Source: a virus
Lineage: Duplodnaviria; Heunggongvirae; Uroviricota; Caudoviricetes
IMG/VR virus record: IMGVR_UViG_3300038443_000233
Location: 1-64,000 of that record
Strand: one strand, 5' to 3'
DNA: 64,000 bases
Every line of letters starts with the position of its first letter. Within the stretch, counting starts at the first letter, position 1. The translations under genes were made by a program, and so were the position numbers. Shown here in pieces: positions 77-41,537 of this stretch. Under the pieces are notes generated by a model that did not search any database, was not told the DNA's origin, and was given only the letters and a program-made list of their open reading frames with translations.

Positions 77-868
77 TTACTTCGAAACGTTGACCATGCC
101 CTTGAAATCGTACGGTACGACGATGGTGTGGACACGACCAGCGGCGATGCCTTCAGCGATCTTCATTTGGGCCTGAGCTTGCATGTAGTTCACCGCACCG
201 GCATTCGCGTTCAGTGCTGCGATACGCTTCGATTCCTGTTCGGCCTTCTGCACTTCGATTGCCGACTGCTTCAGTTCGTTCTGTGCACGGACGAGGTTGT
301 TAGCCGATTGCGTGATTGCCGAAGGCGGTACGGCGTTACGGATCAGCACTTGCGATACGATGATCGACGTATCCAGCTTTTCCTTCGCCAGTTCTTCCTT
401 CATGATGGCGACGATATCCGACTCGACCGCTTGTCGCTGGATGTTGATCTTCAGCGCCTCGTACTTCGGGATCACCTTCATCACAGCGTTCTTCGCGATG
501 GTTTGCACGTAGCTCTCCATCAGCAGCGTTTCGCCTTTCTCGTTCACGCCGTTGAACGACTTCGCCTTGTTGACGTACAAGTCGCTCACGCTCGACGGGT
601 TGATGTTGTAAACGACGGTAAGATCGAAGTCATCCATCGTTACGTTCTCGACCGTCTGCGGCCGGAGGTCTTTCACTTCAGCGTTGATTTCACGCACCGG
701 GAAGGTCAACACTTCGCCCACGAGGGTCTGGTTCACCGAGCTGGCGGGCAGTTCGGTAGTGTCGATGCTCTTGTCCCAGTGTTTGCGGAGGCCGACTTCG
801 CCGGTGTCGATACGAGTGCAGCCCGTGAATGCCAGAGCCATTGCGATCATTGCCAGTACTTTCTTCAT
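77..868 (-). CDS. SPFH/band-7 (prohibitin/stomatin-like) domain lipoprotein
   Basis: 263 aa. The N-terminus MKKVLAMIAMALAFTGC has a lipobox. The coiled-coil-rich body resembles SPFH family proteins. A conserved leader/RBS sits upstream. Confidence 0.6.
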   Translation of the reverse strand: MKKVLAMIAMALAFTGCTRIDTGEVGLRKHWDKSIDTTELPASSVNQTLVGEVLTFPVREINAEVKDLRPQTVENVTMDDFDLTVVYNINPSSVSDLYVNKAKSFNGVNEKGETLLMESYVQTIAKNAVMKVIPKYEALKINIQRQAVESDIVAIMKEELAKEKLDTSIIVSQVLIRNAVPPSAITQSANNLVRAQNELKQSAIEVQKAEQESKRIAALNANAGAVNYMQAQAQMKIAEGIAAGRVHTIVVPYDFKGMVNVSK

Positions 869-7358: not shown

Positions 7359-7613
7359 TTACCCTTTCTTATGTAGTTTGCCATGCAGGAAGGTAGACGT
7401 AATGCTACCAAGCCCGCCTCCGAGGCCGATTGCCAAGACAACCCACCCCATTCCGTTGTGGACGACGTTGAGCAAGATGATAGCCTCGCATACAGCCATC
7501 ACCATGCTCGTCGGCAGAATCCAAAGATACTTCTTGTGCATCACGTTCAATTGTTGGAACGAACGCAATCCAATGTTCAAGAAGCTCGTAATGAATGCTA
7601 GGAAGTAAATCAT
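7359..7613 (-). CDS. small membrane protein (2-3 TM helices)
   Basis: 84-aa hydrophobic ORF. A further 36-aa hydrophobic micro-ORF (MLLALIIVFTLLLVLADD...) lies at ~7243-7353 on the minus strand. Confidence 0.4.
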   Translation of the reverse strand: MIYFLAFITSFLNIGLRSFQQLNVMHKKYLWILPTSMVMAVCEAIILLNVVHNGMGWVVLAIGLGGGLGSITSTFLHGKLHKKG

Positions 7614-8956
7614 TTCTGATCCAGCGTGTAATGCTTCGGGTTCTTCCCAGCATGCAGCTCGTTGAGGGCTTTCACCTTGGCCTTCAGCATGTCCAGTTCC
7701 TTCAGGTAGCCAGCCATACGGAGGCGGTCATCGATCAGCATGCCAGCAGCACGAGCTTCCAGCAAGATAGCGATGTTCGCCAACACACCGCCGAGGTTAG
7801 GAACACCGTCAGCCGGGTCGTCTTCTTGTCCGCATGCCCACGCCAGCAAGTGACGCATTGCGGCAGCGATGTAGATACTCGCCTCTACGGGCGTATTCGC
7901 GAAGTTGGCCTTACCGTACTTCAGTGAACCATTGTACAGACCGAGTGCGCCGTACGCAGTCGCCAGTGGGCTCCACATATTCAACGGCACCGACGACACG
8001 CCGTACTGACGCTTCGGGTTTGTGTCTGGAGCCACATTCGTATCAGGTTGCACATTACCAGTCCAATCGATACCAAATGGCTTCGTACTTTCCGTGTTGA
8101 TCGTTCCAGTTGTAATGACGCCCGGACCAGTGCCCAGAGCTGACAGCGAACCTACTTCAAGGGCAATCGATTTGCCCATACTTTGTGCCAGATCAACAAC
8201 CATCTGTTCCTGCGTTACGGTCTTCATCTGTTCGCTTTCCGGTTGGATGCGGTACGCTACGATATCGCCCCCACTACCGTCTTGTTTCCAGTCCCAGTAA
8301 TACGTATCTGCTGCGGTTGCCAGAAGCTCATCACCATCGCTAAAACGTATCTCCACCAATGTTCCCGCAACGACCGGCATTTTTCCACCTTTCCACTCGA
8401 TCCACTCGCTTACTGCGGGCTTCTGTTTGTGCTTATTCGGCGTCAGCACTTTGTAGCTTTCGATGGTAAAGCCGCCGAAATCGTACCAACAGAAATAACC
8501 GGCTCGTCCAGTTTCCGTGTTGCCGTTACGAAAACGAACAGACACCAGAACATCCTTTCGGACAGGGATAGTGTTGTGAGTCTTCTTGGTAGCCGTAGCA
8601 TCCCATTTACGCTGCGCACGACGCTTCTTGGAAGCCTTGCTTTCCTCGCGTTTGATAGCTTTCACTTCTTCCGCAGCAGCTTTCAGCTCGTCCAGCGTCA
8701 CTTCACGTTGCGGGCCTTTCACAACAGCGGAACTTGGAACTTTCGGAGATGTGCCCGATGCGTGCCAAATAGTGCCTTCGTCGTCCACGCGGATGTATGC
8801 CGCCGGGGAGTAATCATGAACTTGACGAGGATTGCCGAAGCCCCACCGGAAGCCCATAGCGAAGTATGCCTTCTCGGCTTCACCTGTAGAGCCTCCGTGC
8901 AGTTTTACGAATGTATCTTTGAACTTCGACGTGATTTGATTGGTTGCTTGCGTCAT
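7610..8956 (-). CDS. hypothetical protein (448 aa), replication-module protein of unknown function
   Basis: Long ORF with an RBS and conserved leader. A minus-strand promoter TTGACA-17-TACACT lies at ~8987-9015. No motif could be assigned confidently. Confidence 0.6.
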   Translation of the reverse strand: MTQATNQITSKFKDTFVKLHGGSTGEAEKAYFAMGFRWGFGNPRQVHDYSPAAYIRVDDEGTIWHASGTSPKVPSSAVVKGPQREVTLDELKAAAEEVKAIKREESKASKKRRAQRKWDATATKKTHNTIPVRKDVLVSVRFRNGNTETGRAGYFCWYDFGGFTIESYKVLTPNKHKQKPAVSEWIEWKGGKMPVVAGTLVEIRFSDGDELLATAADTYYWDWKQDGSGGDIVAYRIQPESEQMKTVTQEQMVVDLAQSMGKSIALEVGSLSALGTGPGVITTGTINTESTKPFGIDWTGNVQPDTNVAPDTNPKRQYGVSSVPLNMWSPLATAYGALGLYNGSLKYGKANFANTPVEASIYIAAAMRHLLAWACGQEDDPADGVPNLGGVLANIAILLEARAAGMLIDDRLRMAGYLKELDMLKAKVKALNELHAGKNPKHYTLDQK

Positions 8957-9229: not shown

Positions 9230-9571
9230 CTAAATACCCCCAGTCACGCCGGATGTGTTACTTCCGCGCTTAGCTCGGTTTCTGTTGTTGCCTTGTATGG
9301 TAGTAGTACGAAGATTCTCCCTCCTGTTGTCACTCTTGTTGCCGTTGATGTGGTCAATACACATACTACTATCTGGCAGTTCTCCGTCTAGCAACGCCCA
9401 CACAACCCTGTGGCACAGCAGGCGCTCCCCTCCGAGCTTCAATCCCCAGTAACCAGAGGAAGACATGGCTCCCGCCATGTCCCCGGCTTTTACTCCGCCG
9501 CCTCTAGCCACCTTCCACCTAAGCCCGCTTGGTACGTTCGGGGCATATTCAAGGAAGTCTGCGTATTTCAT
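9230..9571 (-). CDS. HNH endonuclease
   Basis: 113 aa with the HNH motif CIDHINGNKSDNRRENLR. Confidence 0.7.
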   Translation of the reverse strand: MKYADFLEYAPNVPSGLRWKVARGGGVKAGDMAGAMSSSGYWGLKLGGERLLCHRVVWALLDGELPDSSMCIDHINGNKSDNRRENLRTTTIQGNNRNRAKRGSNTSGVTGGI

Positions 9572-11359: not shown

Positions 11360-11737
11360 TCACTCCTTCCTTCCGTAGTAGCAATACACTCCCATCGGGT
11401 CTTTTTGCTCAAGCGTCGAGCGTATCCGGCAACGCATAAACTCCAGCGCTTCGGGCTTCACGTACTCGTCAATCCAGAGATGTGAAATCTGGTATCCGGC
11501 ATATTCACGGACATCCCTGTCGGCATGTCGCAACATAACCTTACCACCGTCCTTATGGGTAATCGAACGGCTACGAGCATCGTACGTGAAGCCCGACATC
11601 TTACTCGTTGCGAGGAATTTCCACAAGGCATTCTCGCTTGTAGCCTTACCACACATGATGATCGAGCGAGTGTTAGGACAAGCCTTGGCTTGCACCAAGG
11701 CCCGTTGCCCTATCGTTTTAAGCTGACGGGCCAACAT
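11360..11737 (-). CDS. hypothetical protein
   Basis: 125-aa ORF. It does not overlap the primase gene if the 11331 start is used. Confidence 0.4.
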   Translation of the reverse strand: MLARQLKTIGQRALVQAKACPNTRSIIMCGKATSENALWKFLATSKMSGFTYDARSRSITHKDGGKVMLRHADRDVREYAGYQISHLWIDEYVKPEALEFMRCRIRSTLEQKDPMGVYCYYGRKE

Positions 11738-12755
11738 AGTTCTCGCCCGGAATGAACTTCCGATACTGCCGCCAGCCCTTCAGGTTGCCCGACCACAACT
11801 TACCTTGACGATCCACGTGCGTGATGCCTTCTTCCCATGTGTACGGAACCCACGGATGGTTCTGTTCGTAGTTCGTCGGACGAACACTGCTTGGGTAGTA
11901 GCCCCATTCACGGATCGGCGTAGCACAGTGTTCGAACGCAGAAGCATGCTTTTTCTCGTCACCCACCAGCCGGTCGTACACTTCCAGCGACTTCTCCAGC
12001 CCGTAACCTTCGTTACGATAGCTTACAGCAGCGCAACGTGCACATGATACCTTGATTGCCTCTTCCAGCGTCAGCAATCGGCCCTCTTCCCCGATTTCCT
12101 CGTTCATCTGGTAGCCGATGATCGTGCCGTCTTCCTTTACAGCCTTGCCATAGATGTAAGGCAAGTGCCATTCACCAGCCTGCAACAACTCCGGCGTAGA
12201 AGCCTTACGTGCCTCGTTCATCACACGGGCCAGTTCCGCCAGAGTCGGATCAGCAGCTTCATGGTCGCGGAGCCAGAAGAAGTTCTCCAGCTCAGTACCA
12301 CTCAGCACCGTCTTCATCATCTGGAACGGCTCAAGTAGGCGATTGTACACTTGCTTGTGGTAGCCAGCCTTATTGAACTGATCTGCGAAGTAGATGGCGT
12401 GTTCCTTCGCTTCGTCCCAAGCTTCTTCAGGCGTCCACAGCGGGGAACCAGAGTTACCATCGTACTCCACAGGCCAGCCCAGAACGCCAGCGTTGAAGTC
12501 TTCACCTTTGTCCTGCATACCACTCTGGTTTGCACCGAAACGGAACGGACGGCCCAGCAGTTGCTTGAGCATCTTCAGGAACGGTACAGCACGTGAGCTG
12601 AAGCTGTTCTTCGACAGCATCCGGTGCGTGTTCAGCTCCGCCAACACCAGACGCGGGTATTCGATTTCGAACGTCAGGAACCGGACGCCCGCCTTGCTGA
12701 TCGAGTCAGCGAGGATGGTAGCCTTGATTCCGTACTTACCTTCGATTGTTACCAT
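11718..12755 (-). CDS. thyX: flavin-dependent thymidylate synthase ThyX
   Basis: It contains the ThyX signature RHR.....S (here THRMLSKNSFSSRA). The likely start is MVTIEGK. Confidence 0.75.
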   Translation of the reverse strand: MVTIEGKYGIKATILADSISKAGVRFLTFEIEYPRLVLAELNTHRMLSKNSFSSRAVPFLKMLKQLLGRPFRFGANQSGMQDKGEDFNAGVLGWPVEYDGNSGSPLWTPEEAWDEAKEHAIYFADQFNKAGYHKQVYNRLLEPFQMMKTVLSGTELENFFWLRDHEAADPTLAELARVMNEARKASTPELLQAGEWHLPYIYGKAVKEDGTIIGYQMNEEIGEEGRLLTLEEAIKVSCARCAAVSYRNEGYGLEKSLEVYDRLVGDEKKHASAFEHCATPIREWGYYPSSVRPTNYEQNHPWVPYTWEEGITHVDRQGKLWSGNLKGWRQYRKFIPGENYVGPSA

Positions 12756-13072
12756 CACTCCCCCAGAATGTCGATGATACGCTTGAGCTGGTCCGAACTC
12801 AGCAGCTTGCCGACACGGATAGTAGTTTCCACGTCGGTAACGTCGATGATGAAGTTCTTCAGTGGTGCTTCCTCTTCCACTACTTCGAAGTCGCCATCGG
12901 TCCACCCGCCGTGCGCTGTGCTAGACTTGCTCTTGGACACAGCCGTGAACTTCGTTGGATCACTGTACATGGGTTTGAACGTGTTAGGGACTGAGTAGAC
13001 GATATCCCCGACTACGAAGTCGTCGCCAAGGTCGTTAATCACGCGAAGTTTTGTACCGATTGGATGGGTCAT
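12755..13072 (-). CDS. hypothetical protein
   Basis: The start MTHPIGTKL is preceded by an RBS. A minus-strand promoter TTGCAA-17-TAGAAT lies at ~13218-13246. Confidence 0.45.
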   Translation of the reverse strand: MTHPIGTKLRVINDLGDDFVVGDIVYSVPNTFKPMYSDPTKFTAVSKSKSSTAHGGWTDGDFEVVEEEAPLKNFIIDVTDVETTIRVGKLLSSDQLKRIIDILGE

Positions 13073-13530: not shown

Positions 13531-14117
13531 TTCCCATGCCTTTCTGTATAGCCTGCACCTTCGGAATTCAAGTAGCTTACCACAGCACTGCGGTAGAAGC
13601 AAGCTGCGGAAAACGCTGGCAGCAAGCCGTACTTATCGACGCTGAAATACTTCGTGCGCCTTTTACCTTCACCGACATCATTCCACTGTACCTTGGCATA
13701 AGTGTTTCCTGCCTTGTTCACATGAAATCCGACTCCAGTTTTACCGGACGAGTTGTTCTCGTACATAGCCTTGTTACGGCTGTTCTCTATCGTACCTACT
13801 AGCCTCAAATTGGACGCCCGATTGTTACTTCGGTCGCCGTCTTCGTGGTCAACTTCGTCGTCCGTACCAAGCTCCACTTTGTTCACGATTGCATAGACAA
13901 TCCTGTGGCACTTCAGTTGGACACCTTTGTGCCTCGTGATCCAGCAGCCGGTTGCGTCGTGAAAGTGCCCTACAGCGTCTCCTGCTTTATTGACAACTGT
14001 TGTGTGCTTTCGCCCACGAGGTTTGTCCTTCCGCAGTCGGAGGCAACTTTCACTCGTCTCGTCATAATAAAAGGCAGCACTGAGTTCAGCAAGTGAAAAT
14101 TCAGTGCCCGCTCGCAT
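13527..14117 (-). CDS. HNH homing endonuclease with AP2 DNA-binding domain
   Basis: The HNH motif is CHRIVYAIVNKVELGTDDEVDHEDGDRSNNRASNL. The C-terminus is AP2-like (GVGFHVNKAGNTYAKVQW). Confidence 0.7.
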   Translation of the reverse strand: MRAGTEFSLAELSAAFYYDETSESCLRLRKDKPRGRKHTTVVNKAGDAVGHFHDATGCWITRHKGVQLKCHRIVYAIVNKVELGTDDEVDHEDGDRSNNRASNLRLVGTIENSRNKAMYENNSSGKTGVGFHVNKAGNTYAKVQWNDVGEGKRRTKYFSVDKYGLLPAFSAACFYRSAVVSYLNSEGAGYTERHGK

Positions 14118-15283
14118 TACGCCTTCTCTTTCAGAAGAAGGTAGTGGTTGCTAATACACTTGAAGCTGAAGTCCTTGTCGCATGCCTTGAACACGACGCC
14201 TTCACGCATCACACCCGGATTATCGCCTTCACCCGATGCGTATGTCAAGAGCTTTTGCACAGGGTCTTCGCCTTCCTTCAGTTGCAGGATGTTTCGCAGC
14301 GTACCCTTATCTACCACAGTAGCGTGGTTGATATCGTTCGAGATAGCGTACGACGTGCGTTCCCACGGCAGCATGTACTCTTGCATGTCGATCTTGAAGA
14401 TGTCAAACAGGTGGAATTCAACGCCCTTCACCTTCTCGTAGTTGCCTTGGATGTCCGGAGCAACCAGCTCGCCTTGCAGAGCGATGGAGCCTTCGCACAG
14501 GATGTCCAGATTGTCGTTCAGCTTCTCGATGAGAGGCTTAGCAGCCGTGTGGAAATTCGACGTACCGTCGAGCGGCAGCAGCACGTTACGCGAGCACAGG
14601 CCAAACACCGGCTGAGGTTTCTTGCGCAGCACGAAGTTCTTAATGCGAGTGAACAGCGAGTCCTTGCCATGCACCAGTGCCTTCGCATCTTCGTAGTATT
14701 CGCTACCCGGTACGATACGGAACACCGTCAGGCTGGAACCGTCCTTCTTCACTGTCACTTCGAAGATGGTGTCGAGGTTCTGTTCGATCATGTGCCCGTA
14801 GTTCTGTGCACGCTCTTGGTCCGTCTTCTTGATGAAGTACGGGAACGAGCGTGTCTTCGACGGCATCTGGCCGTTGTTGTTCGAAGTTCTCTCTTCCGGG
14901 GCTTCCCACTTCTGGACGCCCAGAGCCTCGGTCACGTCCATACCCGCGCTTTCAGGGCGAATGTCCTCGAAGTACGGTACGACAGCCAGCGGTAGCAGCA
15001 GACCTTGCGACAGCGTTTTGCGCAACTTGATCGTCTTCAGACGCTCGCCCTTCACGCCGTTGTATTCCTTCGGCTCGTATCCTTCTTTCGTCAGGAACGG
15101 AGCGATGGTGTTCGGCACCCACGAATCGATTTCGAAGTAGACGGCCAACTCACCTTCCTTGAATTCGCCCTTCTTCACGACGACTTGCCAGCCATCGACC
15201 ATTGCAACCTCGATCTTGTCCGCACCAGCAATGGGCATGATTTGTTTGATACGGCGGATGGTTGCCAGTTTACGTTCAGTCAT
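14117..15283 (-). CDS. ATP-dependent RNA ligase, Rnl1 (T4 RnlA)-like
   Basis: Nucleotidyltransferase motif I is KKDGSSL, similar to Rnl1 KEDGSL. Motif IV EGVVFK and a lysine-rich motif V are present. Confidence 0.5.
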   Translation of the reverse strand: MTERKLATIRRIKQIMPIAGADKIEVAMVDGWQVVVKKGEFKEGELAVYFEIDSWVPNTIAPFLTKEGYEPKEYNGVKGERLKTIKLRKTLSQGLLLPLAVVPYFEDIRPESAGMDVTEALGVQKWEAPEERTSNNNGQMPSKTRSFPYFIKKTDQERAQNYGHMIEQNLDTIFEVTVKKDGSSLTVFRIVPGSEYYEDAKALVHGKDSLFTRIKNFVLRKKPQPVFGLCSRNVLLPLDGTSNFHTAAKPLIEKLNDNLDILCEGSIALQGELVAPDIQGNYEKVKGVEFHLFDIFKIDMQEYMLPWERTSYAISNDINHATVVDKGTLRNILQLKEGEDPVQKLLTYASGEGDNPGVMREGVVFKACDKDFSFKCISNHYLLLKEKA

Positions 15284-31467: not shown

Positions 31468-31500
31468 AAGCCCCGCACGAGGCGGGGCCAAAGGGTATGC
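31468..31500 (-). terminator. intrinsic terminator for minus-strand operon
   Basis: On the minus strand, GGCCCCGCctcgtGCGGGGCC is followed by ttttcttttc. Confidence 0.65.
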
Positions 31501-33666: not shown

Positions 33667-34809
33667 TCAAGTGTTGTAGCTGGTGTACGTCGGAATCGCG
33701 GGTGGCTTGCGGGTCAGGACAGGCTTCCGTTCGTTCCAACGTTGAGAAATTACCACAACGCCCTTCGCTGTGAAGCGGCTCTGCTCGAATGTTACGCCTT
33801 CAGCATTTACGCTGGTCTTCATATCGAACAGCTTCATACCTTTAGGGCCGTACCTGTCGGTGTGCACCCACTTACCATTCAAGCGACGATTGTATCCGTT
33901 ATCTACGAGGAAGTTGCGGAATTCGCGCTCGTTTGCTCCCAGCAGCTTCGCTACGACGCGGAACGGTTTTAGTTCTTGTCCGTCAACATACTTATCAACG
34001 AATTCGACTGACGGCTTCTGAGTCTCGATGAGCATCGTCTGCTGTTCGATCTGCACGGCCTTCTGTGCATTCTCCAGTTGCAGGGCTTCCGTACGTTGCA
34101 CGTTAGCTGCCAGTTCCAGAAGCGCTTCGGCGTACGTCTGCGGAAGCTTGAACGTAGTGTTTGCTACTTGATGTTCCAGTTCCGTCAAGCGGTCATATAC
34201 TTTCGTCTGAACTTCCAGCGATTCCGACATTACCATCAGTTCCGCTTCCCGCTTTGGCAGGTAGTAGCAGGGGTTGGTCTTCCCATTTCCCCCTACGTAG
34301 TAGCCCGAAAAATTCCGGGCTTCGATTCCGGGGTGAGAGCGGATTTTCACCATGAAGTCATCGTGGCGCAGTTCAGCCTTGCCAGTAGGGCGAAGCTGGT
34401 TGATGACTTCCACGATTTCCACAGACGACATCGTTTTGACGTTCGCCAGATGGACAGGAGGCGTGAACTTTTTAGCGACAGGCGCTACTGCTACAGCGGT
34501 GGTCGGGACATGACGCTCAAGGTACACTTGGACAGCTCTTGCGACCCCACCCTCCGTGCGCCGAGCGAACTCCAGTGCAGTCCGGATTGACAACTTGTAG
34601 TCCATACGCCCTTTTCTCGGCGGTGCGATATTGGATGTATCGACAGCAACGTAATCAACGTTCTCGACGGAACGCGTTACTGCAAGCTTCTTCTTAGCCC
34701 AGTCGGAGAAATCTTGACCGAGTTGCAGGCGGGTATGCAGCTCCCGTGCGTCAACGGTGTCAATTACCACGCCGCCGACTTGTTCTTTGTTAATTTGAAT
34801 CAGTTCCAT
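33667..34809 (-). CDS. putative antirepressor-like protein (Ant/ORF6N-like N-terminus, KilAC-like C-terminus)
   Basis: The start MELIQINKEQ follows the conserved leader. A promoter TTGCGG-17-TACAAT lies at ~34844-34872. The domain assignment is tentative. Confidence 0.45.
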   Translation of the reverse strand: MELIQINKEQVGGVVIDTVDARELHTRLQLGQDFSDWAKKKLAVTRSVENVDYVAVDTSNIAPPRKGRMDYKLSIRTALEFARRTEGGVARAVQVYLERHVPTTAVAVAPVAKKFTPPVHLANVKTMSSVEIVEVINQLRPTGKAELRHDDFMVKIRSHPGIEARNFSGYYVGGNGKTNPCYYLPKREAELMVMSESLEVQTKVYDRLTELEHQVANTTFKLPQTYAEALLELAANVQRTEALQLENAQKAVQIEQQTMLIETQKPSVEFVDKYVDGQELKPFRVVAKLLGANEREFRNFLVDNGYNRRLNGKWVHTDRYGPKGMKLFDMKTSVNAEGVTFEQSRFTAKGVVVISQRWNERKPVLTRKPPAIPTYTSYNT

Positions 34810-34856
34810 CTGTGTTACTCCTTGGGTTGGTTGAGGAAGTACGATTGTAGTGCTAC

Positions 34857-35411
34857 TTACGCTGCACCGCAAGCGTTTTGTTGCTGAAATTCACGCACGA
34901 TGGCGTCCAGCTTCGCCCAGAGCACCGGGCAACCGCCGACGAGGGCTCCGTCCAGTAGCTCACGCGTCTCTGCAACGATGACAGGAGCGAATTTCGGATC
35001 GTGTTCGATGACGGACGGCAGGTTGTCGCAGCGGTCGGCCAGCTTGATCGTCTTGACGACGGCTGGAGCGTCCTTCAGGCGGGCGATTTCGAACGCTTTG
35101 CGCTCCGCACGGGACGGTGCCGGAGCTTCCCACTCAGTTTTCGTCAGCCAACCCACGAGGACGGCCACGTCGTTGCCGAAATACTCGATGATCTGCTCGT
35201 GCGTGATGTGCGTGTCCTCGACCGTATCGTGCAGCAGGGCCGCTTGAAGCGTCACGAGGTCTTTGTGACCGTGCTGGTCGAGAATTTCAGCGACACGTTT
35301 CGGGTGATGGTAATAATCCTCGCCTGTGTACTTGCGCTTCTGGCCCGCGTGAGCAGCCAGTGCGAAGCCCGAAGCCGCTGCGATAGTCATATCGAATTCA
35401 AAGTCCGTCAT
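34857..35411 (-). CDS. HD-domain (p)ppGpp hydrolase, SpoT/RelA-hydrolase-like small alarmone hydrolase
   Basis: AHAGQKRKYTGEDYYHHPKRVAEIL...AALLHDTVEDT aligns to the SpoT HD motif HxGQ.R..GEPY..HP..VA.IL...AALLHD..EDT. Confidence 0.75.
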   Translation of the reverse strand: MTDFEFDMTIAAASGFALAAHAGQKRKYTGEDYYHHPKRVAEILDQHGHKDLVTLQAALLHDTVEDTHITHEQIIEYFGNDVAVLVGWLTKTEWEAPAPSRAERKAFEIARLKDAPAVVKTIKLADRCDNLPSVIEHDPKFAPVIVAETRELLDGALVGGCPVLWAKLDAIVREFQQQNACGAA

Positions 35412-35424
35412 TTTCTTCTCCTTT

Positions 35425-35445
35425 GGTTAAAAAGCCGGGACTCCC
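35425..35445 (-). terminator. hairpin GCCGGGAgtCCCGGC + T-run (minus strand)
   Basis: It lies downstream of the recombinase gene. Confidence 0.45.
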
Positions 35446-35476
35446 GGCAAAATTTTTGCGGCCCGCCTGCGGCGCT

Positions 35477-36148
35477 TCACGCTACCTCTCTGAAGCGGTC
35501 TACGACGTTTTTGACGGACATGGCGTGCCATTCACCGCCACGGGCGGTCTTCACCCGCATGTCGTTCAATTCGTTCGCCATCGCCCGGTAGGACATCCCG
35601 GCGAGGATCATACGCTGGATCATCGGGCGGAGTTTGTCAGCAAACGCGTCAGCCTGTTCCTTGAGGGCCAAGGAAGCGCATGCGACAGCCTTCGCACGGA
35701 CAGCGGCAGACGCCCCAAGAACCTCGCCACGGGCTTTCTTGGCTTGCAGGCCATCCCGTGTGCGGTCCGAAATCATCTTGCGCTCTTTCTCCGCCAAACC
35801 GGCGTAGATGTGCAGCGTGAACGGGTCAACGTCCTCGCCAAGCTGGGTCACGATAGTGCGGGGATTGTCGCGGACGTACGTGAGGATGAACACGGCGTCA
35901 CGAGAGAGGCGGTCGAGCTTGTTGACGACGATGTAGGCGCCGATCTTCTTTGCTCGTTTGGTGATTTCAGCAAGCACCGGGCGCTCGTCATCGGCTCCAG
36001 TGCGGACTTCCTGAACTATTTCAACGATTTCGTAACCGTTGTAGTGGGCGAACAGGCGGATTGCCTCTGCCTGTGCCTCCAGACCGTTTTTCGTCTTGCC
36101 TTGCTCTTTGGTCGATACGCGGGTGTAGCCGATGATTTTCTTCTTCAT
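35477..36148 (-). CDS. serine recombinase (resolvase/invertase family)
   Basis: The catalytic N-terminus is IIGYTRVSTKEQ, with a C-terminal HTH. The start MKKKIIGY follows a GGAAGGA RBS. Confidence 0.8.
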   Translation of the reverse strand: MKKKIIGYTRVSTKEQGKTKNGLEAQAEAIRLFAHYNGYEIVEIVQEVRTGADDERPVLAEITKRAKKIGAYIVVNKLDRLSRDAVFILTYVRDNPRTIVTQLGEDVDPFTLHIYAGLAEKERKMISDRTRDGLQAKKARGEVLGASAAVRAKAVACASLALKEQADAFADKLRPMIQRMILAGMSYRAMANELNDMRVKTARGGEWHAMSVKNVVDRFREVA

Positions 36149-36207
36149 GATGTCCTTCCATGCGGTGGGTTGCGATGGAAGGATTATCACGTATAAAACC
36201 TAGACGG

Positions 36208-36603
36208 TCAAGCAGTTTTTGCAACTTTCGTATCTACGAACAAGAGGGCCAACTCTGCCTTCTGCTCTGCCAGCAGGGCGTCGAGCATCGCTTCCTGCTC
36301 ACGAGTGGTAGCCTGCTGCTGTTCAGGCAACTTACCAAATACGCGCATGTACTTCACGCGGATACGTTCTTTGCGGAAGATGGTCGAGATTTCTTCCTTG
36401 ATACGTTTCTGCATCTCGACGGCCTTATCCAGCTTTACAGCGTGTTTGCGACGATCCGCACATGCTTCCACGAAATACGCCGTCTCGCCTTGCTTGCGCC
36501 AATGTGCTGCTTCCAGCTTGCATTCCTTGACAGCAAATTGCAGCAGGGTAATGACATCGGCGTTCAGTTTCAGCGAATTGCGCAGGATCAGCAGGTTGCT
36601 CAT
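36208..36603 (-). CDS. hypothetical protein (131 aa)
   Basis: ORF. Confidence 0.4.
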   Translation of the reverse strand: MSNLLILRNSLKLNADVITLLQFAVKECKLEAAHWRKQGETAYFVEACADRRKHAVKLDKAVEMQKRIKEEISTIFRKERIRVKYMRVFGKLPEQQQATTREQEAMLDALLAEQKAELALLFVDTKVAKTA

Positions 36604-36737: not shown

Positions 36738-37025
36738 TCACTTTCCGTCTGTCTTACCCCATCTGGCTTGACGAGCTTTAGCCAAGCTATCAGCTTTCGA
36801 CTGTTTAGGTGTCTGGTCCTGTACGCTCGCAACATTCGTGCGAAGACGTTGCACAGTGTCGTTGCTTCGCTCAAGCGTAACGGTGTACGTACCGCCCCAT
36901 AGACCTACTACATCTCCCGGATTTGCGACACTGATGGCCCAGCCATCCATGACCTTCAGTTCCAGTTCCTTCGCAAACTTTGCGAGACTGGTTTCCACGA
37001 TGTCGTGGTAGATGATGTCACTCAT
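36738..37025 (-). CDS. hypothetical protein (95 aa)
   Basis: ORF preceded by a 'ggaggta' RBS. Confidence 0.45.
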   Translation of the reverse strand: MSDIIYHDIVETSLAKFAKELELKVMDGWAISVANPGDVVGLWGGTYTVTLERSNDTVQRLRTNVASVQDQTPKQSKADSLAKARQARWGKTDGK

Positions 37026-37099
37026 TTAATACCTCCATGTTTATAAGTAAGAAGATTATATAGTACTCCTTACGATATGTCAAGTAGTACTGTCTAAAG

Positions 37100-37128
37100 T
37101 TGACAAACTTAAGACTATAGTGTAACAT
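37100..37128 (+). promoter_or_regulatory. sigma70-like promoter TTGACA-17-TAACAT
   Basis: Perfect -35 hexamer with a 17-nt spacer. Confidence 0.5.
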
Positions 37129-37311
37129 ACGACCGAACGAGCGCAGCGAGTGAGGGAGTAGAAGAAAGAATATAAGTAATATTTATAAACTACTACTATA
37201 TGTTCCCCTGAAAGGGGGAACAATAAATAAGTAGTTAAGTAACACTATAGATATTCTATAACATAGTCAATAGATATTTATAATAATATATCTATAGGAT
37301 GTTGCGTAAAG

Positions 37312-37340
37312 TTGACAAAAGAGTGTACGTAGTATATACT
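37312..37340 (+). promoter_or_regulatory. sigma70-like promoter TTGACA-17-TATACT (spacer contains GTACGTAG)
   Basis: It sits upstream of the gene at 37361. Confidence 0.6.
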
Positions 37341-38400: not shown

Positions 38401-38475
38401 AGCTGACTTACCCGAGAGGAAAGGGACCATCCTTGTAAGATGGAAGCCGTGGGTTCGAATCCTACAGTCAGCACC
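38401..38475 (+). tRNA. tRNA-Thr (anticodon TGT)
   Basis: Cloverleaf: acceptor GCTGACT/AGTCAGC, anticodon loop CTTGTAA, T-arm GTGGGTTCGAATCCTAC, CCA encoded. Confidence 0.7.
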
Positions 38476-38564
38476 ACGAGCCTGCGTTGCCGTCTACGGT
38501 CTTAATTGATTGAGAAGCGGCATGTAAGTCAAATCCCATTGCACACGGGGAGATAGTGTGCCAT

Positions 38565-38639
38565 TCTGGGTGTAAGTCATTGGTAGACAGCCTGTCTTGG
38601 ATACAGGTCGCAGTTGGTTCGATTCCAACCTCCCAGACC
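38565..38639 (+). tRNA. tRNA-Pro (anticodon TGG)
   Basis: Anticodon stem CCTGT/ACAGG, loop CTTGGAT, T-arm GTTGGTTCGATTCCAAC, CCA encoded. There is one acceptor mismatch. Confidence 0.65.
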
Positions 38640-38663
38640 AGAATTCAGTGCTAGTGTACAAAA

Positions 38664-38692
38664 CTTGACAAATTGTCGAGCGTATAGTAAGA
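38664..38692 (+). promoter_or_regulatory. promoter TTGACA-17-TAAGAT (internal to tRNA region)
   Basis: Same architecture as the promoter at 38096. Confidence 0.55.
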
Positions 38693-38878
38693 TAGCAGTA
38701 CGTAACGAATTTGACGTAACAACTACTTGTACCAGCTACGACCTGTAAGCGTACGTACGCGAATACCGGGCAACGTAGGAATGCTGGAACGTCATACTTA
38801 GCAATCGCAGAAGCGGCGTGAGTTAATCTACTCTCACTGAGGCGGAGACGGCCAAGAAACAGAACTGTCCAAGAACAA

Positions 38879-38952
38879 TTGCGGTGTGGTGTAACGGTTA
38901 GCACTATGGGCTCATAACCCGAAAGACCAGTTCGAATCTGGCGTCCGCAACC
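38879..38952 (+). tRNA. tRNA-Met/Ile2-type (anticodon CAT)
   Basis: D-arm GTGT-AACGGTTA-GCAC, anticodon loop CTCATAA, T-loop TTCGAAT. Two acceptor positions are mismatched, so the boundaries are approximate. Confidence 0.6.
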
Positions 38953-39023
38953 ATCCAATCCCGGTAACGTGTCCGGGTTTCTGCCGGTGAGCCGTGCAGG
39001 GAGAGCAAAACACGATTGACAAT

Positions 39024-39110
39024 TGTGGTGTGAGCGGAATTTGGTATCGCAGCGGACTGTTAATCCGTCACCGAAAGGTAACTGCTGGTTCGAGTCCAGC
39101 CTCCACAGCC
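39024..39110 (+). tRNA. atypical class II (long variable arm) tRNA with anticodon GTT (Asn) - assignment uncertain
   Basis: T-arm GCTGG-TTCGAGT-CCAGC is perfect. Anticodon stem GCGGA/TCCGT, loop CTGTTAA. The 15-nt variable arm folds as ACC-GAAA-GGT. The acceptor has a T-T mismatch. Confidence 0.45.
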
Positions 39111-39160
39111 AAGTTGAGAGTTAGCTGATAGCTCATGTCCAAAAATCAGCACGAACATAA

Positions 39161-39235
39161 TGGCTCTATCGTATAGTGGTTATTACGCCGGATTGTCGAT
39201 CCGAGCACGGGAGTTCAATTCTCCCTAGAGTCGCC
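39161..39235 (+). tRNA. tRNA-Asp (anticodon GTC)
   Basis: Acceptor GGCTCTA/TAGAGTC, anticodon loop TTGTCGA, T-loop TTCAATT, CCA encoded. Confidence 0.7.
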
Positions 39236-39251
39236 AGAATAGGACTAGACG

Positions 39252-39649
39252 TGAACACAACAAACATCGGAGACATCACTGAGCAAGGCTTTGTTCTACG
39301 GTGTTTGGAAAAAGAGATACCGATACTTCGTCCCGTAGGTAACAATCTACCGTACGACTTCGTGATTGAATATGAAGGCGCTCTCCGCAAGGTGCAAGTT
39401 AAGACGGGCCGGAAGGCCGCTTACGAAGGTTCGTACATATTCAACACACGTTCAACGTCGAAGAATTTTAATGAGGTAGTGCAGAAAACTTACGAAGGTA
39501 AGATCGACTACTTCGCAGTACAGTTCAGGGACCACTCCCGCGAATTCTATCTGATTCCGGTAGGGGACACAGGGACCAATGCTACCACTCTGTACCTTGG
39601 CGATAATCCTCGTCCGGGGCAGAATGTAGGCTCCAAGTACAAGTTTTAA
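39252..39649 (+). CDS. putative nuclease-fold protein (PD-(D/E)XK-like; free-standing/homing endonuclease candidate) embedded in tRNA array
   Basis: Track ORF 39176..39649 overlaps tRNA-Asp. The plausible start is GTG at ~39252 after AGGA. PYDFVIEYEG...RKVQVK resembles a PD-(D/E)XK core. The assignment is tentative. Confidence 0.35.
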
Positions 39650-39655
39650 GAATAT

Positions 39656-39728
39656 GCGGCCTACCTACTGGGATAGGGCTTTGCCTTCCAAGCAAATGAA
39701 AACGGTTCGAATCCGTTAGGCCGCTCCA
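39656..39728 (+). tRNA. tRNA-Gly (anticodon TCC)
   Basis: Acceptor GCGGCCT/AGGCCGC is perfect. Anticodon stem TTTGC/GCAAA, loop CTTCCAA. T-arm AACGG-TTCGAAT-CCGTT. Confidence 0.75.
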
Positions 39729-39830
39729 AGTTCCCCGACAAGGAACAGCAGCTCGTAACAGAGCTTCGCTACGTTAGTTTCGTAAAACTCAGGTTGGTAC
39801 GTACCTGTCAGTAATCGTACCACGAACATT

Positions 39831-39907
39831 GGGCAAGTGACGGAATTGGTTTACGTGCTACTCTTAGAAAGTAGATTTTGTGGGTTCGAGTCCCACCTTG
39901 CCTACCA
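39831..39907 (+). tRNA. class I tRNA with anticodon TAG (would read CUA/Leu) - atypical
   Basis: Acceptor GGGCAAG/CTTGCCT, anticodon stem CTACT/AGTAG, loop CTTAGAA. Short 5-nt variable arm. T-arm GTGGG-TTCGAGT-CCCAC. Confidence 0.55.
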
Positions 39908-39912
39908 GTCAG

Positions 39913-39950
39913 GGATGTCGTCGCAGGTTCGATTCCTGCCGCTTAAAACC
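39913..39950 (+). other. orphan tRNA 3'-half-like element (perfect T-arm GCAGG-TTCGATT-CCTGC without matching 5' half)
   Basis: It follows the previous tRNA immediately. An orphan canonical D-arm-like 5' half (TAGCTCAGTCGGTAGAGCG) lies downstream at ~39957-40000. Confidence 0.35.
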
Positions 39951-39999
39951 TTAAGTGGTCTAGCGTAGCTCAGTCGGTAGAGCGGTCCCACATTACAAC

Positions 40000-40082
40000 G
40001 TGCGAGTGGCTTGGGTAAATCGGTACAGCCAGTAGGCTCAAACCCTACGCTTTTGTCGGTTCGAATCCGGCCTTGCATACCA
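40000..40082 (+). tRNA. tRNA-like, anticodon CAA (Leu?) with irregular D-region
   Basis: Anticodon arm GTAGG-CTCAAAC-CCTAC is perfect. T-arm GTCGG-TTCGAAT-CCGGC. Acceptor GTGCGAG/CTTGCAT pairs with two G-U wobbles. The D-arm is unusually long. Confidence 0.4.
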
Positions 40083-40093
40083 AGCAGTACAAT

Positions 40094-40167
40094 GGTGACG
40101 ATAGTGTAATGGGAGCATTGCTGTCTGTGAAACAGCAGGAATGGGATCGAAACCCAGCGTCACACCA
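40094..40167 (+). tRNA. tRNA-His (anticodon GTG)
   Basis: Anticodon stem GCTGT/ACAGC, loop CTGTGAA. An extra 5' G is consistent with the His G-1 identity element. Confidence 0.65.
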
Positions 40168-40309
40168 AATTTATTTACTCATACGTGGGTTCCTAGTACG
40201 GGGGTTCGAGTCCCAATGGTAACGGAAGTGGAATCCAGCTACCGCCGACTAGCTACCGGCGAAATACGGCGCCTAGCGAGCGAACGGCGTATGCGTAAGT
40301 GAATTTAAT

Positions 40310-40385
40310 GCGGAAGTAGCTGATGAGGTCTTAGCGCTGGCCTGAAAACCCAGAGATGAAGGTTCGATACCTTCATTCCGCACCA
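40310..40385 (+). tRNA. tRNA-Phe (anticodon GAA)
   Basis: T-arm GAAGG-TTCGATA-CCTTC, acceptor GCGGAAG/ATTCCGC, anticodon loop (C)CTGAAAA. Confidence 0.6.
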
Positions 40386-40395
40386 GACGAACAAC

Positions 40396-40487
40396 GCGTG
40401 TAAGCCGAATATTGGTTAAGTCGGCGCTGACTGTAAATCAGTAGTGGGCTCGACCCGGTGGAGGTTCAATTCCTTCTGCACGCACCA
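40396..40487 (+). tRNA. tRNA-Tyr (anticodon GTA), class II
   Basis: Anticodon stem GCTGA/TCAGT, loop CTGTAAA. The variable arm is 17 nt. Acceptor GCGTGTA/TGCACGC. Confidence 0.7.
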
Positions 40488-40493
40488 TACAGT

Positions 40494-40570
40494 GTTCCAT
40501 TCGACTTCTGGTTGAGGTCAGCGTCCTTTCAAGTCGCGCAGGCTCGGTTCAAATCCGGCATGGAACTCCA
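40494..40570 (+). tRNA. tRNA-Glu (anticodon TTC)
   Basis: Acceptor GTTCCAT/ATGGAAC is perfect. D-stem GACT/GGTC. Anticodon loop CTTTCAA. Confidence 0.7.
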
Positions 40571-40577
40571 AAACAAT

Positions 40578-40652
40578 GCTTGGTTAATTCAGCGGTAGAA
40601 AATCATCCTTACAAGGTGATAGTCGTTGGTTCGAATCCAACACCAAGTACCA
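40578..40652 (+). tRNA. tRNA-Val (anticodon TAC)
   Basis: T-arm GTTGG-TTCGAAT-CCAAC. Anticodon stem TCATC/GGTGA, loop CTTACAA. Confidence 0.7.
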
Positions 40653-40658
40653 AGATAT

Positions 40659-40733
40659 GGGCTGGAGCGTAGGTTACGCTGGCCTCCCTTGCACGGAGCG
40701 CTGATCGGAGTTCGATTCTCCACTGGTCCACCA
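40659..40733 (+). tRNA. tRNA-Ala (anticodon TGC)
   Basis: The G3:U70 wobble in the acceptor is the Ala identity element. D-stem AGCG/CGCT. Anticodon loop CTTGCAC. Confidence 0.8.
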
Positions 40734-40800
40734 GAGTAGAAGCGTGGAACAACACAAAGCTACGGCTAATAACGGCTGCTGCGTGCCACGCTCAATGAAC

Positions 40801-40874
40801 CGCCGCATGGCAGAGTGACTATGTACTTGCCTGCAAAGCTTGGGAGATTGGTTAAAATCCAATTGCGGCGTCCA
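40801..40874 (+). tRNA. tRNA (isotype unresolved; possible Cys GCA)
   Basis: Acceptor CGCCGCA/TGCGGCG is perfect and T-arm ATTGG-TTAAAAT-CCAAT is perfect. The D and anticodon arms are poorly paired in my manual fold. Confidence 0.5.
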
Positions 40875-40881
40875 AGACAAT

Positions 40882-40954
40882 ACGTGATCCGAGGGATATC
40901 GGCTCTGGCGCTACGAACGCTGGCTGGGTGGTTCGACTCCATCATTACGTGCCA
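40882..40954 (+). tRNA. tRNA-Arg (anticodon ACG)
   Basis: Anticodon stem TGGCG/CGCTG, loop CTACGAA. T-arm GGTGG-TTCGACT-CCATC. Acceptor ACGTGAT/ATTACGT. Confidence 0.7.
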
Positions 40955-40956
40955 TA

Positions 40957-41030
40957 TAATCTGCTACTTACCTTCACCCTGAATTGACAGGGCATTCGCG
41001 GAAGGGGAGCCACGTAGGTAGCAGATTATA
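40957..41030 (+). other. long imperfect hairpin (TATAATCTGCTACTTACC ... GGTAGGTAGCAGATTATA) with structured 42-nt loop
   Basis: A ~17-bp inverted repeat lying between tRNA-Arg and tRNA-Ser. Confidence 0.4.
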
Positions 41031-41031
41031 T

Positions 41032-41121
41032 GGAAGATTAACCAGCCGGGGCGCTGGCGGGCTTTGCTAAAGCTTTGGTGCGTGTCGAGCGCATGGCAGT
41101 CGGGATGTCAATCTTCCGCCA
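41032..41121 (+). tRNA. tRNA-Ser (anticodon GCT), class II, 90 nt
   Basis: Acceptor GGAAGAT(T)/(A)ATCTTCC + G + CCA. Anticodon stem GGGCT/AGCTT, loop TTGCTAA. The long variable arm GTGCG-TGTCGAG-CGCAT has a non-canonical T-loop. The terminal sequence resembles selC, but the anticodon is not TCA. Confidence 0.55.
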
Positions 41122-41229
41122 GAGTAAATTTTCGCTGAACGTGGTAAGCGTTTCCGTCACCAAGCGCTTGAGGGCGGTAGCTAAGTAAAAACAACTCTTC
41201 GCCATTATCGGACTAAATGGCACGAACAT

Positions 41230-41321
41230 GGAGACTCAATCCGATTGGCGACGGAACCGGCCTTGAAAGCCGTGCGAGCTAGAAATAGCCTTGGGAGTTC
41301 GACTCTACCCAGTCTCCGCCA
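41230..41321 (+). tRNA. tRNA-Ser (anticodon TGA), class II, 92 nt
   Basis: Acceptor GGAGACT/AGTCTCC is perfect. D-stem TCC/GGA with a long loop. Anticodon loop CTTGAAA. Variable arm GCTA-GAAA-TAGC. T-loop TTCGACT. Confidence 0.7.
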
Positions 41322-41461
41322 GAGTACCCGTAAGGGGCTTGCTACGTTGCTGCTTCTTAAGCGTTAAAGCAGACTATAGGTTGGCCGTAGATTTGTGTGC
41401 ACACGAAGAACGGCGTGATGGTACTAACGTACATGACAGGTCGAGAAAGATCGACACGAAT

Positions 41462-41537
41462 AGTCCCGTAGTTTAACTGGTTAAAACGGTGGACCGATAA
41501 TCCACTAATCTGTGTTCGATCCACAGTAGGACTACCA
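41462..41537 (+). tRNA. tRNA-Ile (anticodon GAT)
   Basis: D-stem GTTT/AAAC, anticodon stem GTGGA/TCCAC, loop CCGATAA. T-arm CTGTG-TTCGATC-CACAG, CCA encoded. Confidence 0.75.

Follow-up and report, generated by a model that had tools for sequence, protein, structure and literature searches.

The 64,000-nucleotide stretch analysed here (the window; positions 1 to 64,000 of IMG/VR record IMGVR_UViG_3300038443_000233) covers most of the genome of an uncultivated, siphovirus-like phage lineage of ~91 kb. Judged by its sequence and predicted fold, the gene at 34857-35411 on the minus strand encodes an intact SpoT/Mesh1-type HD hydrolase without a synthetase, that is, a small alarmone hydrolase (SAH) belonging to the RelA/SpoT homologue (RSH) hydrolase family. 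The gene is kept in the same place throughout the clade of the phage, and no toxic synthetase was found as its partner. Comparison with characterised homologues suggests, with a probability of roughly 75%, that its product is an active, Mn2+-dependent and promiscuous 3'-pyrophosphohydrolase that is made early in infection, chiefly keeps (p)ppGpp low, and also undoes (p)ppApp and the pyrophosphorylation of tRNA CCA ends.

A single-domain hydrolase of the SpoT/Mesh1 type

The elements of the gene and its product are the following:

34857-35411, minus strand: SAH gene, ATG start, 184 amino acids, a single HD_4 domain
35418-35423, minus strand: Shine-Dalgarno sequence AAGGAG of the SAH gene, read from the sequence, with a 6-nt spacer to the ATG; kept in the related contigs L004, L007, and L009
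SAH residues H36, H61, D62, and D126: predicted metal ligands, from homologue alignments
SAH residues E65 and D66: predicted catalytic pair, accompanied by R26 and N130, from the same alignments

The identification holds because profile searches, a search of PDB sequences, the invariant catalytic residues, and the predicted fold all agree. The earlier note, made from the letters alone, had read the HD motif of SpoT, RelA, and Mesh1 in a 184-amino-acid open reading frame (ORF), and the motif is literally present as HAGQKR (H21-R26), HP (36-37), VAEIL (40-44), and AALLHDTVEDT (57-67). The protein matches the Pfam HD_4 model with E=1.1e-16 and 61.4 bits (cutoff 27.2) over profile positions 1-142 of 156, and the general Pfam HD model barely above threshold. 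The NCBIfam model TIGR00691 (spoT_relA) is matched at 8e-23 in its N-terminal hydrolase part (model positions 4-123 of 687), and two phosphohydrolase families of PHROG are matched at 8e-36 and 4e-31. Such a profile search had been proposed as a check on the phage-encoded SAH; both hydrolase profiles recognise the protein. HD_4 and HD are the only domains that match in the Pfam and NCBIfam searches, which found no synthetase domain, as had been claimed, and no TGS or ACT domain either. The hydrolase domain thus stands by itself, and the length of 184 amino acids lies within that of the single-domain class (~160-220 amino acids; 160-221 among the homologues collected here).

Searched with phmmer against PDB sequences, the protein finds solely SAHs, MESH1, and Rel/SpoT hydrolase domains, the top matches being Lmo0812 (3.9e-18), human MESH1 (1.7e-15), and SpoT (1.4e-14). 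H21, Q24, R26, H36, H61, D62, E65, D66, D126, and N130 are invariant across 36-38 aligned homologues. In the phmmer alignment, H36, H61, D62, E65, D66, D126, and N130 are paired with H35, H61, D62, E65, D66, D122, and N126 of MESH1, which, as established for MESH1 and RelSeq, are the Mn2+ ligands and catalytic residues. An AlphaFold2 model built from a 36-sequence alignment is an all-helical domain (pLDDT 96.2, pTM 0.91). Compared with the PDB by Foldseek, this model has MESH1 on top (TM 0.80-0.84, rmsd ~2 A, 30-32% identity), followed by the SAHs of Leptospira, Corynebacterium, and P. aeruginosa (bacterial SAHs reach TM 0.76-0.82) and then by Rel/SpoT hydrolase domains; all 45 matches at E<=1e-3 are MESH1, SAH, or Rel/SpoT hydrolase domains. 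The ratio of nonsynonymous to synonymous substitution rates, taken from clade pairs with unsaturated synonymous sites, is 0.17, 0.26, and 0.34, and the gene is therefore under purifying selection. On the plus strand, two ORFs overlap it (34900-35247 and 35001-35591); antisense ORFs of this sort are common opposite GC-rich genes.

MESH1 (HDDC3; PDB 3nr1, 3nqw, 5vxa) is thus the best structural match and has the same H, HD, ED, D, and N residues; it hydrolyses ppGpp, but it is eukaryotic and its reported physiological substrate is NADPH. The structural search also brings up the human MESH1-NADPH and MESH1-PAPS complexes among its top matches, and NADPH is a substrate of a Xanthomonas SAH, which also influences the NADH level (PMC9765508). 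The window protein might by analogy be a metabolic phosphatase of NADPH (or of another 2'/3'-phosphonucleotide) that shifts the NADPH/NADH pool rather than alarmones. However, alarmone hydrolysis is the activity linked to phenotypes in the characterised bacterial and phage SAHs, and the gene context contains no pointer to NAD(P) metabolism; we regard this function as improbable. The (p)ppApp-specific hydrolase Aph1 (PDB 7smg) is likewise an HD-domain enzyme acting on 3'-pyrophosphorylated adenine nucleotides, but it is a weak match (phmmer 3.6e-5, query-normalised TM ~0.6), and the window SAH lies outside the Aph1 family.

Conservation of the locus and turnover of the adjacent slot

The SAH gene lies in a leftward-transcribed row of genes:

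36738-37025, minus strand: gene of unknown function, 95 amino acids; 84% identical in L007; at the head of the leftward unit
36208-36603, minus strand: gene of unknown function, 131 amino acids; 76% identical in L007; at the head of the leftward unit
35477-36148, minus strand: small serine recombinase, 223 amino acids counted from the ATG of the JGI gene call; Pfam Resolvase 2.7e-25; conserved upstream partner of the SAH gene
33667-34809, minus strand: AntA/KilAC antirepressor-like gene, 380 amino acids; Pfam AntA 1e-12, ANT 3e-12; variable slot downstream of the SAH gene

The recombinase and the antirepressor-like gene are the neighbours that had been named from the letters alone. The 131- and 95-amino-acid products gave no Pfam, PHROG, or PADLOC match, and PADLOC, applied to SAH and its neighbours, recognised no defence system.

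Relatives were collected by exact-protein look-ups and a scan of IMG/VR and are contigs of ~80-93 kb; those that bear the identical SAH protein are metagenomic and reach ~91.9 kb. Gene order in the clade is the 95-amino-acid gene, the 131-amino-acid gene, the small serine recombinase, and SAH, and the SAH slot is kept in six of six clade lineages, with identities to the window protein of 100%, 85% (L007/L008), 66% (L009/L010/L012), 57% (L016), 53% (L013), and 43% (L014). In L014, three additional ORFs lie between the recombinase and SAH. The recombinase is 42-90% identical in L007, L009, L012, L013, L014, and L016, and its identity falls alongside that of SAH (90, 72, 73, 67, and 42%), as expected under vertical inheritance. 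It is of the resolvase/invertase type and is kept beside SAH across a clade whose genomes have their own genes for DNA polymerase, primase-helicase, ligase, and ribonucleotide reductase; in the window phage, the reductase gene is located just outside the window.

Whereas SAH stays in place, the slot immediately downstream of it turns over. The antirepressor occupies this slot in the window, a 134-amino-acid ORF and RtcB in L007 (10596-12219), two small ORFs and RtcB in L009 (10616-12815), and RtcB by itself in L016 (10574-11785); in L013 the slot is empty and the conserved small genes come directly after SAH. The slot is a cargo hot spot at which antirepressor and RtcB are exchanged. With the RtcB proteins of the relatives as queries, tblastn found no RtcB in the window, and the gene calls with Pfam annotation on either side of the window include none either.

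This pattern bears on the proposal that SAH is part of a moron-like block with its own terminator, i.e., a recently acquired and dispensable passenger. The GC content of SAH (0.595) and of the recombinase (0.582) does exceed the window mean of 0.505, and the antirepressor adjoins SAH. However, the relatives show the same excess, and the GC content at third codon positions (GC3) is 0.70 for SAH and 0.70-0.72 for SAH and recombinase taken together, as compared with 0.70 for the helicase, 0.67 for the DNA polymerase, and 0.60-0.70 for the replication genes as a group. Since GC3 resembles that of the replication genes and the GC excess is equal in the relatives, composition is no mark of recent arrival. 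The antirepressor, for its part, is the variable element of the pair. Moreover, the presence of SAH is not patchy, its slot being occupied down to 43% identity, the protein evolves under the purifying selection described above, and the gene has no promoter and terminator arrangement of its own; the sole clean hairpin with a T-run sits upstream of it, not downstream. The moron interpretation is contradicted by synteny, and we consider it extremely unlikely.

Equally improbable is a role as a type IV antitoxin, in which the hydrolase would be the partner of a phage-borne toxic small alarmone synthetase (toxSAS), as ATfaRel is for FaRel. In the faRel operon an SAH does act in this way, and PhRel is an example of a toxSAS enzyme that a phage can encode. 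In contrast, a scan of the neighbouring genes and of the 10 larger ORFs without annotation found no RelA_SpoT synthetase domain, the precomputed Pfam calls up to 10 kb on each side of SAH and past both window ends list none, and the clade relatives are without a synthetase beside SAH. As the scanned neighbours, ORFs, and flanking annotation hold no toxSAS partner, this alternative is largely refuted, and the window SAH is an orphan.

The wider gene content is that of a large phage with its own replication module. The first 20 kb of the window (1-20 kb, minus strand) encode DNA polymerase A, a UvrD-like helicase, a primase/helicase, an ATP-dependent DNA ligase, and nucleotide-metabolism genes; the structural genes (large terminase, major head protein, and an 1850-amino-acid tape measure) follow a tRNA array on the plus strand. 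Three minus-strand genes, namely that of a 448-amino-acid protein (7610-8956) whose C-terminal part is a MazZ-like dATP/dGTP diphosphohydrolase domain (PF18909, 8e-17), a divergent ThyX-like protein of 395 amino acids (9e-7; 11718-12905), and a nucleoside 2-deoxyribosyltransferase-like protein (1e-31; 2206-2694), hint at a pathway that might modify bases or edit the dNTP pool. A protein with an SPFH/Band 7 domain (Pfam 2e-14; 77-868, minus strand) adjoins the replication module. On contig L094, a gene call of 49 amino acids (9251-9400, at or just outside the window start) has a weak precomputed match to PF04957, RMF (ribosome modulation factor); if real, it would be a further phage gene linked to translation or the stringent response.

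Predicted expression signals of the leftward unit

The signals recognised around the SAH gene are listed below:

37100-37340, plus strand: promoter-like sites facing the tRNA side
37055-37083, minus strand: predicted sigma-70 consensus promoter, TTGACA-17-TATAAT, 12/12 match, just upstream of the 95-amino-acid gene; heads the leftward unit that contains SAH
36183-36211, minus strand: weaker promoter-like site, 10/12 match, upstream of the recombinase
35412-35476, minus strand: conserved SAH leader with the GC hairpin GCCGGGAGTCCCGGC at 35448-35434 and a T5 run at 35433-35429
34844-34860, minus strand: 17-nt element GTAAGTAGCACTACAAT overlapping the SAH stop, with a -10-like TACAAT and a -35 (TTGCGG) matching at 3/6
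31469-31489, minus strand: first strong intrinsic-terminator-like site downstream of SAH, ~3.4 kb on; 8 pairs, 7 of them GC, with a T-rich tail

The hairpin of the leader (6 GC base pairs, followed by TTTTT) lies between the recombinase stop codon and the SAH ribosome-binding site, which it abuts, and with its T-run (35448-35429, minus strand) it is the only clean structure of this kind near SAH. A promoter scan recognised no promoter-like site between it and the SAH start codon. The palindrome at the SAH stop (34859-34876) has a terminator score solely on the antisense (plus) strand. The terminator that the earlier note had assigned to the minus-strand block is not confirmed.

L004 and L007 (L007:9928-9990) have almost the same leader. 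In L009 (9921-9990), the same base stem carries a loop insertion, and the leader stays with SAH although an extra ORF separates it from the recombinase, which argues that the leader belongs to SAH and not to the recombinase. L016 and L013 have a GC hairpin and T-run of different sequence at the equivalent place. Support for the stem consists of this conservation and the loop insertion in L009; no compensatory substitutions were found in it. A known RNA element was also considered for the leader and rejected, as an E-value scan of 30.5-42.5 kb with Rfam found no family there. We infer that the leader acts as an attenuator or leaky terminator by which the level of SAH is set relative to the upstream genes; it could be a regulated attenuator.

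Element GTAAGTAGCACTACAAT is kept in L007 and L009 whatever gene follows and precedes the cargo that is present, the expression of which it may drive as a promoter. It was not called by the promoter scan. That it is a recurrent promoter of the phage was rejected, since the window holds 2 copies at <=3 mismatches and the -35 hexamer matches at only 3/6.

Proposed function and the tRNA neighbourhood

In the favoured reading, that of a promiscuous hydrolase serving the infection in general, activity, substrates, timing, and benefit to the phage would be those suggested by homologues. Host RNA polymerase would transcribe SAH early from the sigma-70-type promoter of the leftward unit, and the hairpin and U-run of the leader would trim its level. 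Acting on hyperphosphorylated purine nucleotides, the enzyme would remove the 3'-pyrophosphate in a Mn2+-dependent manner; with (p)ppGpp low in the infected cell, the stringent response would be no brake on transcription, on tRNA and rRNA synthesis, or on translation while the phage replicates. High (p)ppGpp is known to slow T7 infection, and a ppGpp0 host favours T7 (PMC13483052). SAH would also destroy (p)ppApp made by toxins of the FaRel/Tas1 type and strip the pyrophosphate that toxins of the CapRel, PhRel, and FaRel2 types place on the CCA end of tRNA. As the chemistry is the same, the phage would have a built-in resistance to those toxin systems. A general role is favoured because every lineage of the clade has kept SAH, in contrast to the changing content of the slot next to it.

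The closest functional precedent is PaSpo (SSU5_099) of phage SSU5, a stand-alone phage hydrolase with a single HD_4 domain that is 42% identical to the window protein over 158 amino acids (E=1e-31) and has all catalytic residues in common with it. In E. coli, PaSpo neutralises CapRel, PhRel, PhRel2, FaRel2, and FaRel (Jimmy et al. 2020, PMC7229694), and it is a routine detoxifier of CapRel, as well as PhRel2, in purification. SSU5 differs in being a ~103-kb plasmid-like Salmonella phage; its SAH has 213 amino acids and a C-terminus ~30 amino acids longer, and the 4 kb on either side of its gene contain neither a recombinase nor a tRNA array nor RtcB. XccSAH of Xanthomonas is likewise an orphan SAH without a toxSAS partner and is listed as "Mesh1-L" in the classification quoted in PMC9765508, but it is chromosomal and bacterial and has a housekeeping and interbacterial-competition role. 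The sequence aligned here is that of X. sacchari, for which orthology to XccSAH is not claimed; it is 49% identical to the window SAH over 152 amino acids and 48% identical to PaSpo. The mutual identity of 42-49% suggests that the window SAH, PaSpo, and the X. sacchari SAH belong to one broad sub-clade. The only SAH listed for X. sacchari is Mesh1-L, and by these pairwise identities, which stand in for a reference tree, PaSpo and Mesh1-L are both candidate subfamilies for the window SAH. A search of the first 50 kb of PVP-SE1 for its PbcSpo gene, meant for comparison, did not find it. The PbcSpo-type SAH of C. marina, ATfaRel, is also single-domain and neutralises all toxSAS enzymes by degrading their products; it differs in lying inside a toxSAS operon and belongs to another SAH subfamily (by description, not by alignment). 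The same gene class includes the SAH of the Pakpunavirus Adele (gp032) and the genes that Iyer et al. (2021) list for jumbo phages as "HD-alarmone PDease". These also occur in large virulent phages, but they are comparative-genomic annotations without experiments, and the window lineage is distinct from the Pakpunaviruses (terminase 41%).

The main rival, which does not exclude the favoured reading and is compatible with ppGpp hydrolysis, is a dedicated counter-defence or tRNA-repair enzyme whose substrate would be tRNA CCA pyrophosphorylated by toxSAS and/or the (p)ppApp of toxins, and which would work together with the tRNA array and RNA ligases. It draws on the following features:

38402-41537, plus strand: tRNA array, divergent from the SAH unit, with 14 tRNAs found by ARAGORN and 2 tRNA-like genes found with Rfam
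40396-40484 and 41230-41317, plus strand: the two tRNA-like genes, missed by ARAGORN, in the slots of tRNA-Tyr and tRNA-Ser in relatives
14117-15283, minus strand: Rnl-type RNA ligase, 388 amino acids; Pfam RNA_ligase 1.2e-16, PHA02142 OB-fold 1.6e-31

PaSpo neutralises toxSAS enzymes that target tRNA, and SAHs restore the aminoacylation of modified tRNA; in particular, MESH1 and ATfaRel do so for tRNA pyrophosphorylated by FaRel2 (bioRxiv 10.1101/2021.04.30.441581). In all clade members, SAH lies ~3 kb from an array of ~16 tRNAs, the arrangement of SAH unit and tRNA array being the same in L004, L007, and L009. RtcB stands directly 3' of SAH in L007, L009, L012, and L016, and the window encodes the RNA ligase listed above, which in a phage lacking RtcB would be consistent with tRNA repair.

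The linkage was also surveyed across viruses, with tRNAs counted in the retrieved DNA of the best 80 of at least 532 SAH loci in IMG/VR. At least one tRNA was present at 32 of these 80 loci and at least three at 22; RtcB occurred near SAH outside the clade once among them, ~6 kb away in the unrelated contig L019. After the SAH segments were clustered at 70% identity, 34 clusters remained, 16 of them with both 10-kb flanks. A tRNA lay within 10 kb of SAH in 8 of the 16, and the nearest one was less than 5 kb away in 7 of these 8 (one-sided binomial p=0.035). However, the statistic is weak, as it lacks an external control set and 3 of the 8 cases are members of the clade to which the window belongs; the SAH-tRNA linkage is suggestive, a lead and not a finding. 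tRNA arrays and auxiliary genes, moreover, both tend to be located in the early regions of large phages. Furthermore, counter-defence genes usually vary among close relatives, whereas here it is the adjacent slot that varies; RtcB was not found in this phage by the searches described above; and the enzymes demonstrated to hydrolyse pyrophosphorylated tRNA in vitro are MESH1 and ATfaRel, with no PaSpo-like enzyme among them. On balance, a dedicated repair enzyme is possible though clearly the less likely option. More doubtful still, though conceivable, is a broader version in which SAH would be part of a tRNA-maintenance neighbourhood comprising the tRNA array, the RtcB hot spot, and the Rnl ligase; here, the selected activity would be the removal of 3'-pyrophosphate from the tRNA CCA end rather than alarmone turnover, the terminator-like leader would gate expression, and phage SAHs would be linked to tRNA arrays in general.

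Several further observations concern the array. The two tRNA-like genes score 38.7 bits with the tRNA model of Rfam and 41.2 bits with the tRNA-Sec model (below its gathering score of 47), and what is probably a degenerate tRNA at 39918-39984 on the plus strand gives a weak YrlA/Y-RNA-like match (30.6 bits; gathering score, 69). A PD-(D/E)XK homing-endonuclease-like ORF at 39176-39649 on the plus strand (PADLOC HEase 7e-18, PF11645 in the JGI calls) is an insertion in the array and overlaps the tRNA-Asp gene at 39162-39236. The sister contig L004 is without this ORF and without tRNA-Asn, so that even near-identical genomes differ in the content of the array. Homing endonucleases of the HNH type are dispersed through the tRNA arrays of the relatives.

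Several points weigh against the favoured reading of a general alarmone hydrolase made early. With a terminator-like hairpin upstream and no promoter before the ATG, expression of SAH could be very low or conditional. That fixation in the clade speaks for a general role and not for one in counter-defence is a heuristic argument. The substrate that is relevant in vivo is not readable from sequence, and since SAHs are promiscuous (MESH1 and XccSAH use NADPH too), it could be a different one. The activity of the window protein is argued from its homologues, and hints at the host are few: no near-identical DNA was found among GenBank phages, the large terminase is at most 41% identical to that of any GenBank phage (best match, Pseudomonas Pakpunaviruses), and the antirepressor has only two matches, at 32-33%, in Pseudomonas genomes among GTDB representatives. 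Such hints are weak and insufficient to name a host.

Homologues of the protein are widespread. They were found by tblastn in 295 of 50,697 GenBank phage records, including phages of Vibrio, Pseudomonas, Rhizobium, Salmonella, and Escherichia, and among them the jumbo phages pVa-21, 201phi2-1, D6, Psa21, and XacN1 (35-46% identity); further homologues come from at least 532 stretches of IMG/VR and from 2289 protein clusters. Jimmy et al. (2020, PMC7229694) described SAHs from phages as well as from 90 prophage-like regions, tested two of them, and proposed that incoming phages bypass alarmone-based defence by means of SAHs; Iyer et al. (2021) counted the "HD-alarmone PDease" among the counter-defences of jumbo phages, and a 2025 Pakpunavirus paper annotated an SAH and offered the same hypotheses. 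Phage SAHs are therefore an established and already tested class, and the functional idea of the earlier note, though plausible, is not new, as both phage SAHs and the neutralisation of toxSAS had been described. In the literature searched, no infection-level test of any phage SAH was found, the evidence being co-expression of homologues.

With the present gene, a class whose members were shown to neutralise toxSAS enzymes in co-expression gains a well-conserved, intact representative from an uncultivated phage lineage. The practical value of the gene is modest: it is a clean candidate for deletion tests of a phage SAH, but with no host in hand. The pattern seen in the clade, in which SAH is fixed while the slot beside it swaps antirepressor and RtcB, argues that the SAHs of large virulent-type phages belong to a core programme of takeover and are not sporadic cargo for counter-defence.

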